Source: a virus (Duplodnaviria > Heunggongvirae > Uroviricota > Caudoviricetes). From it: a DNA stretch of 9,625 bases. Made by a program: the position numbers and the translations under genes. This document shows, in pieces, positions 3,000 to 8,053 of this stretch. The stretch lies in the IMG/VR virus record IMGVR_UViG_2740892370_000019; one strand, written 5' to 3'. The notes below the pieces were generated by a model that searched no databases, was not told the DNA's origin, and saw nothing but the letters and a program-made list of their open reading frames with translations. The number at the start of each line of letters is the position of its first letter. The first letter of the stretch is position 1.

Positions 3000-3422
3000 T
3001 TAAAACGGTATATTATCGCCGTACGGATCATCATTCCCCGACTGTTGTTTTGCCCTGTTCAGTGCGTCAGTGGCCTGCCCCTGCTGGCCTTTTTTGCCGC
3101 CCGGTCGCGCTGTTCGCGCACTGATCACGCTGTCTGCGATAACCTGCCAGCCCTGCCGCGTTTCGCCGTTCTGGCCTGTCCACTGGCTTACCTGCATGTT
3201 ACCCGCCACGCTCACCAGTTCGCCTTTGTGGTGTTTTGCCAGTGCGTCGGCCTGTCTGCCAAACGCCAGGACGGATAACCACATCATCGCCGTTCCGTCA
3301 TCTGCCTGGCTGCACGGAAGGGGGACCGCCATACTAGCCATCGCCATTTGTGTACCCTTGCTGGTGGTCTTTAACTGCGGGTCAGCCACCAGCCGTCCGT
3401 AAGCCGCTATCTGTGCTGTCAT
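3000..3422 (-). CDS. ssb: Single-stranded DNA-binding protein (SSB-like, OB-fold, 140 aa)
   Basis: OB-fold region (GRLVADPQLKTT..., WLSVLAFGRQADALAKHHKGELVSVAGNMQVSQWTGQNGETRQGWQVIADSV) aligns with remembered E. coli SSB ([50 protein letters not shown]). Gly/Gln-rich linker and acidic C-terminal tip ...NDDPYGDNIPF resemble the SSB ...DDDIPF tail. The start overlaps the stop of the upstream 80-aa gene (ATGA). Confidence 0.75.
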   Translation of the reverse strand: MTAQIAAYGRLVADPQLKTTSKGTQMAMASMAVPLPCSQADDGTAMMWLSVLAFGRQADALAKHHKGELVSVAGNMQVSQWTGQNGETRQGWQVIADSVISARTARPGGKKGQQGQATDALNRAKQQSGNDDPYGDNIPF

Positions 3423-3661
3423 GCTGTCTGCTCTCCGGTTTTAACGTTGATGGTTGTCACCTGTTCCGCTTCGGCAATCTCCCGTTCTGTCAGCGTGGCA
3501 AAGTTTGCAGCTGCCGTTGTCATGAATGCGCTTATCAGTTCGGGATGTGCTTTTGCATATCCTTCCCCCGTGTTTCGGTCGATGATTTTTATCGCCACTC
3601 TCAGCCAGTGCTCTGTAAGGTCAATAGCGCGGTAGTGTGGTTGTTTGCGGTTTGCCTTCAT
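3419..3661 (-). CDS. Hypothetical protein (80 aa), translationally coupled to the SSB-like gene
   Basis: Intact ORF starting at an ATG (3661) and ending in an ATGA overlap with the ssb start; the upstream Shine-Dalgarno is weak (GAGA). No family recognised from the sequence MKANRKQPHYRAIDLTEHWLRVAIKIIDRNTGEGYAKAHPELISAF... Confidence 0.5.
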   Translation of the reverse strand: MKANRKQPHYRAIDLTEHWLRVAIKIIDRNTGEGYAKAHPELISAFMTTAAANFATLTEREIAEAEQVTTINVKTGEQTA

Positions 3662-3701
3662 AGTTCAGATCTCAATTTTTCGTATATATATACAAAACAG
3701 T

Positions 3702-4024
3702 GCGGGTTATGCGGGTTAGCGGGTTAGCGGGTTATCTTCGCTTGCTAAGTATTTTTTATTCCTTAATATCAATACATTACAAAATTAACTGTTTACTGTT
3801 TAGCCGTGGCGTAACCCGCAAAATGCTCAAAATAACCCGCAAACGGGGTTTTTTCTGCGGGTTACGCGTGGCTGTTTGCTGTCACTTCCTGTTATTCATC
3901 TGCGGGTTATAATCGCACTTTTGCGGGTTATAACTGCCGTTTTGCGGGTTACGTGCGAGTTATTGATTTCCTTTTTATTCATGCAGTTAATGCACTTATA
4001 CACAGAGTAACCCGCATAACCCGC
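3702..4024. repeat. Iteron array and AT-rich region, putative replication origin
   Basis: Twelve copies of the 8-bp motif GCGGGTTA or its complement TAACCCGC: four tandem copies at 3702..3734; complement copies at 3812..3819, 3833..3840, 4008..4015, 4017..4024; direct copies at 3857..3864, 3902..3909, 3923..3930, 3944..3951, several extended to TTTTGCGGGTTA. They flank an AT-rich stretch at about 3735..3800, directly downstream of the primase-like gene. Confidence 0.7.
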
Positions 4025-4047
4025 AACTTTTCACCTCACACAGGGGG

Positions 4048-6171
4048 TTAATCTTCTGCCTCAGGCTGGAACATCAGCACGTAAAAAACATGCTGCTTCC
4101 CCCCAATTTTGCCGAGAGCCTTTTTCTTGTAACGGCGATCGTTACCCGCTTCCAGCATTCCGGCAGCACTCAACGCGCGGGCAAAGTGGGACGGGTTAAA
4201 TCCCTGTGCGATCTCCCCCTCAAACACATGAGGAAACGTGTAAAAACGGAACTCATCATCTTCATTTCTGATACTCCCCTTTCTGTATCCGGCAAGGTCT
4301 TTAATCGGTAAATCACGTTCATCACTGTTTGGGTAAGGAAGGTATCGACTGAACCCGAACGACGACAAAAACGCCTCAGCCTGTTCAACCATCTGTTTAA
4401 ATTCCCTGTTACCCGTGCCGAACTCCTTCACCCAGGCATTAAAGTTATGCTGTATTGCGTCCCGGCATTCCTGCGCGGCCCAGCCAGTTACATGACCGGA
4501 AAGCACAAGCGCGGCCTCCAGTATGGCGAAACGCTCACCCACGCGGTGGACCTGCTCGCCGTAGCTCTCCGGTATCAGGTTGCGCCACCGTTCGCGGCAT
4601 TCCCTTACCGTATCCTTTGCCTCCTGCTGGTGGCCTGCCAGCCATTTAACCCACTCACGACCCGCTGCCCCGTGATTTTCTGTCCAGGCATCCTTTAACG
4701 CGTCTGCGTGCGCCTTTCCGGTGCTGTATTCGTGAAAGTGCGTGGCTTTTTCCATCGGAACGTTAAGCAGGCGGACAAGCTGCCCCGCTTTGACTTTTAT
4801 CCCCTCCGTTTTGAGGAATGTCTCAACGTCCATTTCTCCGGTGCTGATTGCCACCGTGCGCCAGTGTTTTATCTCCCGGTTGCCGCCGTCCTTCGCCCCC
4901 TGTAATTTCCCGGAACCGTTAAACAACGTATAGGCTGACGTGGACACCTCCCGCGCGTTTCCGGCCTGGCCTATTTCATCCAGGGGTAACAGCCCGTCGT
5001 TGTGCGCCTCTGCCTCGTTAGCGATACCTAACGCTGTGCCGTACCAGGTCAGCCGTTGTGCGTCCGGCTCTCCCCATAAACTTGATGCGATGTTCTGCGT
5101 GGTGGTTTTCCCTGCCGATGACTGTTCGAAAAGATGTACCCCGAAGCCGTCAGCACCAACAAGGCCAATCAAAGGTGCTGCCAGTGACGTGGCAACACCC
5201 AGCATCATGGACGGATTGCCACCAGCCAGCCGCGCCACGCAGTCGCGCCAGCCCTCCGCCGTACCCGCAACCGAATAGCCATTAACAGCGGCACTTTTTC
5301 CGGTAAACAGGATCGGTTTTTCAGAATCACCAATGATTGAGCCGTCCGGCATGATATACGCGCCAAAATGCCAGCCCGTTGTTGTGCTTAGCTGCCATTC
5401 CTCATGGCTTCCGCTTAACTGCATCCAGTCAGCCAGGATAGCCCTGTATTTGCCGTTTGTTGTCACGTTCAGCCCGTGATCTTTAAGCAACCGCCAGCCG
5501 TCACGGTCGCCAATGCCACCACACGGGATCGCCATTGTGATGACTTCATGGTTTGCTAATTTTTTCCAGCGCATCACGCGGTAATGCTCTTTACCGATCG
5601 TCCCCGTTCCCAGTAGTTCAAGCGGAGAACATAACCACGTCTCAGGCCGGATAATTTCGCCTGACTGCTTATCCACTTTGGGCGTTACCCAGAAAACACC
5701 ATCGACGCGACTTTCAACGCGGGGCTTTAATTCATCATCCTGATAGCATGGCTCTTTTTTCTTTACAGGCAGTTCAACTACCTTTTTCTTTTCCGCCTGC
5801 TCTGCCCGTTCACGTTCCAGATATTCGCGCCAGTTCTCCCGTTTCTGGCTGTGCATTCCTTCAGGGTAATAATCAGCATCCCTGACACCTGCCGCTGCCA
5901 GTTTCTGCCCGATGGTATTAACAAGCCCCGGACGCAATAACCCCGCCTGGTAGAGACGCACGCGATAGCGTCCGTCCGGTACGATTTGCAGGTTGTCCAG
6001 TTCGGCAAGTTGTTGCTCTCCAAGCCAGACAGGTGGCACGTTATCGCCAGCCAGTCGCCCGTCCTGTTCCTGCCACTGCTTCGCATGTGCCCACGCATCA
6101 CTACCCGCAAAAATGATGACTTCCGTCATTTTGTCACGCGGCTGGTGTTTTAAATTTGGCGCTTTTTTCAT
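4048..6171 (-). CDS. Replication protein, primase/helicase-like (P4 alpha / D5-type family assignment tentative), about 707 aa
   Basis: Large ORF with a central P-loop-like motif FEQSSAGKTT. It is the last gene of an operon beginning near the operator region and lies next to the iteron array, the layout expected for a satellite pri-rep gene. The track start at 6186 is a GTG; the ATG at 6171 (MKKAPNL...) has GGAGAG at about 8 nt and overlaps the stop of the upstream gene. Family membership was not verified. Confidence 0.75.
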   Translation of the reverse strand: MKKAPNLKHQPRDKMTEVIIFAGSDAWAHAKQWQEQDGRLAGDNVPPVWLGEQQLAELDNLQIVPDGRYRVRLYQAGLLRPGLVNTIGQKLAAAGVRDADYYPEGMHSQKRENWREYLERERAEQAEKKKVVELPVKKKEPCYQDDELKPRVESRVDGVFWVTPKVDKQSGEIIRPETWLCSPLELLGTGTIGKEHYRVMRWKKLANHEVITMAIPCGGIGDRDGWRLLKDHGLNVTTNGKYRAILADWMQLSGSHEEWQLSTTTGWHFGAYIMPDGSIIGDSEKPILFTGKSAAVNGYSVAGTAEGWRDCVARLAGGNPSMMLGVATSLAAPLIGLVGADGFGVHLFEQSSAGKTTTQNIASSLWGEPDAQRLTWYGTALGIANEAEAHNDGLLPLDEIGQAGNAREVSTSAYTLFNGSGKLQGAKDGGNREIKHWRTVAISTGEMDVETFLKTEGIKVKAGQLVRLLNVPMEKATHFHEYSTGKAHADALKDAWTENHGAAGREWVKWLAGHQQEAKDTVRECRERWRNLIPESYGEQVHRVGERFAILEAALVLSGHVTGWAAQECRDAIQHNFNAWVKEFGTGNREFKQMVEQAEAFLSSFGFSRYLPYPNSDERDLPIKDLAGYRKGSIRNEDDEFRFYTFPHVFEGEIAQGFNPSHFARALSAAGMLEAGNDRRYKKKALGKIGGKQHVFYVLMFQPEAED

Positions 6172-6473: not shown

Positions 6474-6794
6474 TTATCCCCGATTTGAATCAGTATTCGC
6501 TTTCTTTATGGCATTTAATGCATTTGTGGCATTTTCAATGGTGCACCGTAGCGAAATATCAAAATGCCCAAGCATTGCCAGTAACAAACCAATATTACCC
6601 ATATCAATGCGCATGGCCTTTTCGTCATAGTCCTCATTTTCTGACGCATGCCACATCAGGCTACCAATTGACGCAACAGCCATTGATATATTGTCAGTAG
6701 CCCCATCCGCAGCGGAATAAACCTTTTTAGCAATATCATGCTCACAGTTAAAATGCGGATTAATCAGGTACTGGTAATTTGACATATCAGGCAT
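6474..6794 (-). CDS. Hypothetical protein (106 aa), AT-rich
   Basis: The ATG at 6794 overlaps the stop of the upstream small ORF (ATGCCTGA overlap); compact operon arrangement. No family recognised. Confidence 0.6.
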   Translation of the reverse strand: MPDMSNYQYLINPHFNCEHDIAKKVYSAADGATDNISMAVASIGSLMWHASENEDYDEKAMRIDMGNIGLLLAMLGHFDISLRCTIENATNALNAIKKANTDSNRG

Positions 6795-6990
6795 GGAACA
6801 CCCCCTGACGAATACGGGCGGCGAATACCATCACGCAGCCAGCCGGGGATTGCTGGCGTGCTTCCTGTTCGCTGCTGGCCTCAATGGTAATCACGCGCGG
6901 TTGTGCCGTACTCAGGGCGATAAAACGCCAGATGTATTTATTCAGGTTGTGCGAGTCCCGCCCTTGCGGGTGTGTGGTATGATTTAGCAT
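6787..6990 (-). CDS. Hypothetical small protein (67 aa), first gene of the replication operon
   Basis: ATG at 6990 preceded by GAGGT at 5 nt; the stop overlaps the next gene start. The track shows this only as the C-terminal end of an implausible 367-aa read-through ORF. GC-rich, and an opposite-strand ORF (6793..6987) exists, so coding status is uncertain. Confidence 0.35.
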   Translation of the reverse strand: MLNHTTHPQGRDSHNLNKYIWRFIALSTAQPRVITIEASSEQEARQQSPAGCVMVFAARIRQGVFHA

Positions 6991-7087
6991 AGCTACCTCG
7001 ATAATCTTTCTATCGTTGGTGGTTAGAAGCCCGGTTAGTGTTAGCGCACTGCCGGGTTTCGTCGTTTCTGCACCTTGCATCAACAAG

Positions 7088-7160
7088 GTGTTAAACACCA
7101 ATTTAAGCCTAGGTGTTAAACACGTCAAGTGTTGAACACTTATTTTTTTTCCTGCATACT
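7088..7160. promoter_or_regulatory. Three palindromic operators with an overlapping candidate promoter for the plus-strand regulator gene
   Basis: GTGTTAAACAC at 7088..7098 and 7113..7123, and GTGTTGAACAC at 7129..7139; each has half-sites GTGTT/AACAC forming an inverted repeat. Centre spacings are about 25 and 16 bp. TTGAAC (7132..7137) lies inside the third operator, then a 17-bp spacer and CATACT (7155..7160), about 30 bp before the ATG at 7190. Confidence 0.55.
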
Positions 7161-7189
7161 GCATTTGTTTTTTGTAAGGGGTACACAAC

Positions 7190-7369
7190 ATGGCGACAAA
7201 AGCAGTAAACGCAAAATCACAAACAGTTGCGGCAAGGGTTCCGCATGAAGTTATGAACAATGTTGAGGCGGTAAAAATGCCTGGTGAAAGTACAGGGCAG
7301 TTTGTAACAGCAGCATTAAAGCGAGAAGTTGAATACCGCCAGCGTCGCAAGGCCAAAGAGCAGGAGTAA
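7190..7369 (+). CDS. Small ribbon-helix-helix-like DNA-binding protein (59 aa), candidate repressor
   Basis: Not in the ORF track (under 60 aa). MATKAVNAKSQTVAARVPHEVMNNVEAVKMPGESTGQFVTAALKREVEYRQRRKAKEQE: a TVAARVP beta-strand followed by two short helices fits the RHH (CopG/Arc-like) pattern. AAGGGG Shine-Dalgarno about 9 nt upstream; sits directly downstream of the operator triplet. Confidence 0.5.
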   Translation: MATKAVNAKSQTVAARVPHEVMNNVEAVKMPGESTGQFVTAALKREVEYRQRRKAKEQE

Positions 7370-7426
7370 CCATCACCAGCGCCGTGGTGCGGTGAACTGT
7401 GGCGCACAGGGTTACAGGTATCTACG

Positions 7427-7624
7427 ATGACTGACAAATCATTAAAGAAATTATCCTCATCCAGGGAAAAACAACGCAAAAACGCGGTAAGCGAACAAGA
7501 ACAGGAAAGATTCGCACCATGTGCGTTTGTCCTTGAGAAGTTCCTTAAAGAGTACAGGCGCACAAAAATGGGATCGCATACCTGGAAAACATCGCAGCAT
7601 GGCGATGCTAAAGAGCAGGAATAG
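7427..7624 (+). CDS. Hypothetical small basic protein (65 aa)
   Basis: ATG with AGG at about 7 nt; charged, Lys/Arg/Glu-rich composition. Lies between the RHH-like gene and the plus-strand terminator. An overlapping opposite-strand ORF (7457..7645) looks like low-complexity hydrophobic read-through. Confidence 0.3.
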   Translation: MTDKSLKKLSSSREKQRKNAVSEQEQERFAPCAFVLEKFLKEYRRTKMGSHTWKTSQHGDAKEQE

Positions 7625-7712
7625 CCCACCAGCAAGCCAGCACACTGATCACATTGCCCACCAGCCAGCAAATCGCTATGATGTTCGGGCTTATGTTTAG
7701 TGTTTTCCCATT

Positions 7713-7740
7713 GGCGACCGCCCCCGGTCGCCTTTGTTTT
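7713..7740 (+). terminator. Rho-independent terminator
   Basis: Perfect 8-bp GC-rich stem GGCGACCG (7713..7720) / CGGTCGCC (7725..7732) with loop CCCC, followed by TTTGTTTT (7733..7740). Placed where the plus-strand small genes converge on alpA. Confidence 0.65.
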
Positions 7741-7759
7741 ATGTGTCATATGCTCCCCT

Positions 7760-7969
7760 TTACGCTGCCTTTCCTGAATTAATGCGATCCCGGCTTTTAA
7801 CCCATTCCATAACCTCAGACTTAACCCAGCCAACCGAACGACCTCCAAGACTGATACGGGAGGGAAAGCGGCCTTGTTTTTCCATCTCATAACGAGTTGT
7901 ACGGCAAACGCCTGTTAGCTCTCTGCATTCTTTTTCACGGATTACACGATCTTCATTTATTTCGCGCAT
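7760..7969 (-). CDS. alpA: AlpA-family prophage regulatory protein (69 aa from the ATG at 7969; possible longer form from GTG at 8053)
   Basis: CRELTGVCRTTRYEMEKQGRFPSRISLGGRSVGWVKSEVMEWV matches the AlpA signature (HTH, G.FP, R.VGW..SEV.EW). Adjacent to and co-oriented with the integrase, as in CP4-57/P4-like elements. The track N-terminus starts at a GTG. Confidence 0.8.
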   Translation of the reverse strand: MREINEDRVIREKECRELTGVCRTTRYEMEKQGRFPSRISLGGRSVGWVKSEVMEWVKSRDRINSGKAA

Positions 7970-8053
7970 AAAAAGCCCTACATAAAATTTACGTATAGAA
8001 ATTTTTGTTTCGCTGTGGATATACGGGAAGGAATACTTCTTAGCTTTTTTCAC

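Follow-up and report, generated by a model that had tools for sequence, protein, structure and literature searches.

An iteron array of two tandem modules downstream of a SaPI-Rep/Cch-type helicase gene as the likely replication origin of an Escherichia coli phage-inducible chromosomal island

The window analysed in this study, i.e., the whole stretch of 9,625 nucleotides from the IMG/VR virus record IMGVR_UViG_2740892370_000019, encodes on its minus strand a tyrosine integrase, an AlpA regulator (7760-8053), a DUF4222 protein, a 707-aa protein that is referred to as Rep below (4048-6171), an 80-aa protein of phrog_1231 (3419-3661), an SSB, a lambda-E-type major capsid protein, a lambda-D-type decoration protein, a second AlpA-like protein and a Nu1-type small terminase (252-797). 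An icd-like gene is also found among the island genes of the window. The second AlpA-like gene (996-1379; 127 aa; phrog_2790, "excisionase and transcriptional regulator") is located between the decoration and small-terminase genes. The 367-aa open reading frame at 6787-7890 is probably not a gene, and the equivalent region of the complete island L001 contains a short icd-like gene on the minus strand and two small genes on the plus strand, one of the YlcI/YnfO family and one hypothetical. The integrase and alpA genes, the unidirectional gene order, the size of about 10 kb and the attachment site are those of phage-inducible chromosomal islands (PICIs). In E. coli chromosomes, near-identical islands have cspD on one side and clpS on the other; the published PICIs EcCIIHE3034 and EcCI18098 share this site and gene order, and the gene order is also that of EcCICFT073. 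We assign the window to the EcCICFT073/EcCIIHE3034 family of E. coli PICIs, with cspD and clpS as its flanking genes. When 501 bp covering the repeat array described below were used as a query, matches were obtained in 313 of 5,426 complete genomes, 23 of which had at least 80% query coverage.

The rep gene had been called primase-like in a preliminary description of this DNA, and our analysis does not support that label. Neither a Toprim domain nor a zinc ribbon was detected in the 707-aa protein, and the D5_N, SF3 helicase and Pox_D5 domains were likewise undetected; all five were detected in the P4 alpha protein. Profile comparison of Rep with P4 alpha revealed no similarity (hhalign probability 0.3%), and P4 was not among the matches when Rep was searched by tblastn against phage records. 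Instead, Rep matched Pfam DUF927 with an E-value of 2e-47, and a phmmer search against the PDB returned 8tch, the SaPIbov1 Rep, with an E-value of 4e-15 over aa 218-602, and 5dgk, Cch, with an E-value of 3e-3. The match to the NCBIfam model Cch1 had an E-value of 6.6e-10, yet it was far under the 700-bit cut-off of that model. Rep is homologous to the hexameric-helicase-type initiators of the SaPIs, and these matches predict it to be a SaPI-Rep/Cch-type (DUF927) helicase-initiator. The full-length AF2 model of Rep had a pLDDT of 51 and is usable for the N-terminal third only; Foldseek with this model returned Cch and SaPIbov1 Rep among its matches despite the poor quality of the model.

The two ends of Rep differ in kind from this central part. 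The N-terminal part of about 145 aa, encoded at 5737-6171, is common to the Pri-Rep protein of EcCICFT073 (hhalign E-value 3.5e-41); aa 1-145 had no match in Pfam and no fold match, and were modelled with high confidence as an alpha/beta domain. Judged from these profile comparisons, Rep is a mosaic in which a PICI-specific N-terminal domain is fused to a SaPI-Rep/Cch-type helicase-initiator. Because the N-terminal domain is common to otherwise unrelated Reps, PICI Reps look like one N-terminal domain combined with interchangeable helicase-origin cassettes. The C-terminal domain (aa 590-707), encoded at 4051-4404 on the minus strand, is the putative iteron-recognition domain. Its model has a winged-helix-like fold of moderate confidence (pLDDT 66.7); a profile of this domain found chance-level matches only among PDB sequences, and the kinship to winged-helix domains is visible at the fold level only.

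Directly downstream of rep is a dense array of one 8-mer. The motif GCGGGTTA occurs exactly 12 times in the 9,625-base window and all copies are located within 3702-4024 (323 bp), with eight on the plus strand (starts 3702, 3711, 3719, 3727, 3857, 3902, 3923 and 3944) and four on the minus strand (starts 3812, 3833, 4008 and 4017). No copy was found in the rest of the window. The number expected by chance is far lower, since 200 dinucleotide-preserving shuffles of the window gave a mean of 0.34 copies and a maximum of 3, and in other E. coli DNA totalling about 133 kb the 8-mer occurred 13 times, always as a singleton; this corresponds to about 1 copy per 10 kb as compared to 12 in 0.32 kb here. 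The preliminary description had reported 12 copies of one 8-mer in both orientations, directly downstream of the large gene, and had named a count of the motif elsewhere as a background check; the number, both strands, the position about 24 bp past the stop codon (4048-4050) and the low background all agree with our results. That description had also seen three clusters around an AT-rich core. The clustering and the AT-richness hold, and the layout has to be redrawn as five groups of iterons with two AT-rich spacers (3735-3811 and 3963-4007). The repeated unit is really 9 bp long, being TGCGGGTTA in 10 of the 12 copies and AGCGGGTTA in the other 2, and a decayed thirteenth iteron, GCGAGTTA, is located at 3955-3962.

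Reading along the gene strand (minus) from the rep stop codon, the array begins with two contiguous iterons at 4024-4008 (minus strand, 9-bp spacing), followed by an AT-rich spacer of 45 bp at 4007-3963 (GC 0.31), which holds a DnaA-box-like sequence TTATACACA at 3996-4004, and by four iterons at 3962-3902 (plus strand), inverted relative to the proximal pair, with starts at 3902, 3923 and 3944 at 21-bp spacing and the decayed copy at 3955, so that the four are spaced by 11, 21 and 21 bp. A single iteron then stands between the modules at 3864-3857 (plus strand) and forms an inverted repeat with 3833-3840 (together 3832-3864). Two iterons in the first orientation come next at 3840-3812 (minus strand, 21 bp apart; forming a 34-nt imperfect inverted repeat with 3920-3953), followed by a second AT-rich spacer of 77 bp at 3811-3735 (GC 0.31), which ranks among the three duplex stretches of lowest stability in the window and holds an IHF-like site TATCAATACATTA at 3767-3779, and by four contiguous opposed iterons at 3734-3702 (plus strand, 8-9 bp spacing). 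Beyond them are a TA-rich box at 3698-3682 (GTTTTGTATATATATAC on the gene strand, minus), which is palindrome-like and of low duplex stability, and the start of the 80-aa gene at 3661, 41 bp past the last iteron. The array is composed of two tandem modules, each with a pair of iterons, an AT-rich gap and four inverted iterons. Opposed sets of at least two iterons on each side of an AT-rich region, as in PICI and SaPI origins, are thus found twice. The outermost double iterons (3701-3718 and 4008-4025) form a perfect 18-nt inverted repeat, and the spaced copies would lie on one face of the helix because the 21-bp spacing corresponds to two helical turns.

The DnaA-box pattern had 3 matches in the window against 1.17 expected, which is weakly above chance, and the box at the position of 3996-4004 is kept in the class-A relatives (the classes are defined below) and in L053, one of the two A2 loci, and is missing from the other A2 locus, L055, and from classes B, C and E. 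The IHF-consensus pattern matched in the distal spacer is likewise weakly above chance in the window. The TA-rich box could be an unwinding element, a promoter -10 element or a priming site.

A search of viral contigs yielded 80 loci encoding relatives of Rep with 58-100% identity, and together with the window 81 loci were compared. An array was found just after the rep stop codon in 80 of the 80 related loci. The arrays fall into six classes by their iteron core, which is GCGGGTTA in class A, GTGGGTTA in class A2, GGGACAAC in class B, TGAACCAAC in class C, TGGGATAA in class D and GTGGTTCA in class E. The order of a pair, an AT gap, spaced inverted copies, a central pair, an AT gap, a contiguous block and the TA box recurs in the six classes, with the exception that the central pair of class B is direct, not inverted; the gene-proximal pair was found in all six classes and the TA-rich box is common to them.

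Among diverged class-A elements, the iteron bases differ at 3 of 96 positions (about 3%) and the rest of the array at 64 of 281 (about 23%; p = 2e-6). The iteron motifs are under purifying selection. Classes A and A2 differ by one identical base change in nearly all copies. The repeats could also be regarded as a non-functional product of slippage or duplication, since the contiguous block at 3702-3734 differs between strains by whole 8-bp units, with 3, 4 or 5 copies (L001 and L011-L024), and single iterons of some strains carry point mutations, such as the decayed copy at 3955-3962 of the window, which is perfect in every other long-form sequence of the alignment (13 class-A and 2 class-A2 sequences, 15 in total). 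But the spacers have diverged about seven times more than the motif bases, the architecture is kept with different motifs over six classes and down to 58% Rep identity, and both the 21-bp phasing and the orientation pattern are conserved, so that this explanation deserves virtually no credence.

When Rep was classified by its last 50 aa, its class agreed with that of the iteron in 81 of 81 loci, and the identity of Rep over aa 1-640 did not predict the iteron class. In L036, which is a natural domain swap, Rep has 92% identity over aa 1-640 and 36% in the tail, and the array is of class B; the breakpoint is located about 330 nt upstream of the stop codon. Conversely, L039 and L043 have 83% identity over aa 1-640, an identical tail and a class-A iteron. 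Similar tails go with similar iterons, the tail identity being 68% between A and A2, 58% between B and D and 64% between C and E. The covariation and the modelled fold both point to the predicted C-terminal winged-helix domain as the part of Rep that would set iteron specificity. Part of this covariation could reflect co-inheritance, not recognition, as only 24 bp separate the tail-coding region from the array. It goes beyond linkage alone, because the gene beyond the array is freely exchanged between iteron classes and the Rep tail never is: the 80-aa gene family adjoins four iteron classes, namely A, B, E and the CFT073-type iterons, and class-A arrays are followed by genes of three different families. 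The preliminary description had proposed a specificity distinct from that of P4, and this is borne out, as GCGGGTTA differs from the P4 iteron TGTTCACC, which is not found among the six classes.

The same comparison bears on whether the repeats are sites for the 80-aa product or for either of the AlpA-like regulators and merely travel with rep. The 80-aa gene starts 41 bp past the last iteron and is inside the cassette swapped in L036, as such a role would lead one to expect. However, the 80-aa protein is 92% identical to its homologue in EcCICFT073, where the iterons are unrelated; its family adjoins four iteron classes, and the gene is missing beside many class-A arrays. The AlpA genes lie at a great distance from the array, and the segment swapped in L036 does not include them. 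It is therefore very improbable that one of these small proteins, instead of Rep, is the reader of the array.

Terminase recognition sites are often short repeated motifs, and the island encodes a Nu1-like small terminase, which would suit a pac- or cos-like packaging site bound by that protein. Locus L002 (NZ_CP069093, locus positions 1-14700) speaks against this, as well as illustrating the modularity of these islands. It is a capsid-forming island with an HK97-type capsid, protease, portal, HNH and large terminase genes, and its cspD-clpS site, integrase type, Rep type and iterons are all as in the window. The same array is thus found there with a different packaging module (a P27-family TerS plus TerL); furthermore, the array class tracks the Rep tail and not the late genes, and terS is about 2.9 kb away from the array. 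We give the packaging site hardly any weight. Since L002 combines the same replication module with other packaging genes, the replication and packaging modules recombine independently.

The position, the purifying selection and the match of Rep tail to iteron class in 81 of 81 loci together argue for what the preliminary description had proposed, i.e., an iteron origin read by the adjacent replication protein, and the position is the one known from EcCICFT073 and the SaPIs. It is very likely, as far as sequence comparison can tell, that the array is the replication origin of this PICI and that the adjacent 707-aa protein is its self-loading helicase-initiator of the SaPI-Rep/Cch type.

Fillol-Salom et al. 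(2018; PMC6092414) described the origins of Gram-negative PICIs as sets of iterons around an AT-rich region directly 3' of rep. The rep-ori segment of EcCICFT073 kept a plasmid at the restrictive temperature and deletion of either rep or ori impaired maintenance (PMC6092414); autonomous replication from rep-ori has been shown there for EcCICFT073, SaPIbov1, SaPI1 and EfCIV583 only. The window shares with EcCICFT073 the island family, the gene order and the location of the origin gap directly 3' of rep and upstream of a small gene and ssb, and with EcCIIHE3034 the attachment site cspD-clpS. The intergenic region of EcCICFT073 begins like that of the window, with a contiguous pair of iterons at 9-bp spacing, an AT-rich stretch of about 40 bp and inverted iterons, and the 80-aa protein of the window is 92% identical to its homologue there. 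In contrast, the remainder of the EcCICFT073 Pri-Rep is P4-alpha-like (D5_N, DUF5906 and Pox_D5) and that of the window Rep is DUF927, and the EcCICFT073 iteron is of the TCTACC type, unrelated to GCGGGTTA. Of the two, the EcCICFT073 origin is the experimentally tested one.

The SaPIs provide a model of the initiator. The SaPI Rep is a self-loading helicase with a C-terminal winged helix that binds the iterons (Ubeda et al. 2007, 2012, as cited in PMC9371898), and that paper gives SaPI origins as six to twelve iterons that directly follow rep and surround an AT-rich centre, on each side of which there are two or more opposed iterons. All of these sequence features are found in the array of the window. 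The differences from SaPIbov1, SaPI1 and SaPI5 are that those reside in S. aureus and not in a Gram-negative host, that their iterons are 5-6 bp long as compared to 8-9 bp here, that they have one AT-centred module and not two in tandem, and that the window Rep, which has low identity to the SaPI protein, carries the extra N-terminal domain common to E. coli PICI Reps.

Classical iteron plasmids such as pSC101, R6K, F, RK2 and pPS10 have iterons of 17-22 bp, mostly as direct repeats, and their Rep proteins are not helicases and recruit the host DnaA and DnaB. The array resembles them in having initiator sites next to an AT-rich unwinding region and to the initiator gene, and in the winged-helix fold of the initiator. 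Opposed sets of 8-9 bp iterons and an initiator with a helicase domain were found here in place of 17-22 bp direct tandem repeats and a non-helicase Rep.

P4 is a looser analogue, and its alpha protein is unrelated to Rep. It is also an E. coli satellite with a tyrosine integrase and with 8-bp iterons in both orientations, and its crr, annotated directly 3' of alpha, consists of two 120-bp repeats, each with two adjoining 8-mers at 9-bp spacing, followed by a T-rich gap and by 8-mers in inverted orientation. The position of an array downstream of the replication gene is by itself no proof of initiation, because this P4 repeat block 3' of alpha is required in cis and is not the start site. The array might accordingly be a Rep-bound control region in cis, namely an analogue of crr or an operator for copy number or transcription, with initiation elsewhere or only indirectly dependent on it. 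The layout of crr is close to the two modules of the window, the distal module directly adjoins the start of the 80-aa gene and comes and goes with that gene, and EcCICFT073 has contiguous cognate iterons just upstream of the homologous small gene. P4, however, has a separate ori, with an iteron cluster 2.1 kb upstream of alpha, and the island has a single cluster, which is internally bipartite like crr: a second cluster is absent from the complete island L001 and from the 2.5 kb on either side of rep in the 80 loci. Deletion of the equivalent region of EcCICFT073 lowered plasmid maintenance (PMC6092414), and a sigma-70-like promoter was not found in a scan of 3400-4300. A control region in place of the origin is improbable on these grounds, and a regulatory role of the distal module can be compatible with origin function.

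The two modules do not occur equally often. About 30 of the 40 class-A loci have the proximal module only and run straight into ssb, and three of these have a 99% identical Rep. The short form differs from the window by one clean indel of 450 bp (3419-3864 of the window as compared with L016 and L025), so that it lacks the single iteron between the modules, the distal module, the TA box and also the 80-aa gene; the small gene and the distal iterons therefore move together as one block. Neither EcCICFT073 nor the short-form arrays have the TA-rich box, and since EcCICFT073 has the gene without the box, the box belongs to the DUF927-type origin cassette and not to the 80-aa gene. As about 30 of the 40 class-A loci carry nothing but the proximal module, this module is probably sufficient.

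Taking the array as the origin, a mechanism can be drawn by analogy with the SaPI work, on which its steps are modelled. The winged-helix-like C-terminal domain of Rep would read the 8-9 bp iterons, and Rep assemblies would form on the opposed iteron sets that flank an AT-rich spacer. The AT-rich spacer would then melt, and Rep would load itself and continue as the replicative helicase. The repeats, the selection on them, their covariation with the C-terminal domain and the homology of Rep are observed here, and binding, melting and the choice of the spacer that opens are inferred. The gene-proximal module is probably the core origin, to which the distal module, along with the TA-rich box and the 80-aa gene, would be an optional accessory; possible roles of this distal module are those of a second loading site, an enhancer like crr, an element of copy-number control or a Rep-responsive operator. 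More tentatively, and with a rather modest chance of being right as a whole, the origin may be bipartite, with the proximal module as the minimal origin, with the distal module, the conserved TA box and the small gene as a portable accessory cassette, and with the six pairs of tail and iteron mutually orthogonal in one scaffold. In such a bipartite origin the distal unit might be a replication enhancer like the crr of P4, or might link the occupancy by Rep to how strongly the downstream packaging genes are expressed.

These results place the putative origin of a common E. coli satellite and identify its probable initiator as a SaPI-Rep/Cch-type helicase and not a P4-type primase, which shows that one PICI family exchanges whole helicase-plus-origin cassettes. 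The design of the origin has already been published for SaPIs and for E. coli PICIs, one of which was tested experimentally, and the current understanding stands; to this, our analysis adds six specificity classes of matched tail and iteron as well as an optional second module. The six classes of tail and iteron offer material to study how a small winged-helix domain reads 8 bp, and they may be of use in predicting incompatibility between co-resident satellites and in building orthogonal replicons.

A full-text search of the literature for the iteron sequence found no paper, and the sequence may be in a published figure. The double iteron TGCGGGTTATGCGGGTTA was also sought in 185,579 representative genomes, where it occurred in 42 stretches from unrelated phyla, none of them with a bidirectional array or a Rep homologue; this number is near the chance expectation of about 17 for an 18-mer, with some 9-bp microsatellites in addition, and the scan is uninformative because the E. 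coli representative is without the island. No RNA family was found by an Rfam scan of the whole window, and the terminator-like matches in 3400-4300 were on the plus strand only, where there is no gene. The inverted repeat at 3832-3864 can form a hairpin in the rep-sense RNA (-18.7 kcal/mol, z -4.35), which is followed by UUAUUUU and may terminate or attenuate transcription between rep and the late genes. In five of the six classes there is a comparable inverted pair whose loop is A-rich; in class B the pair is direct.
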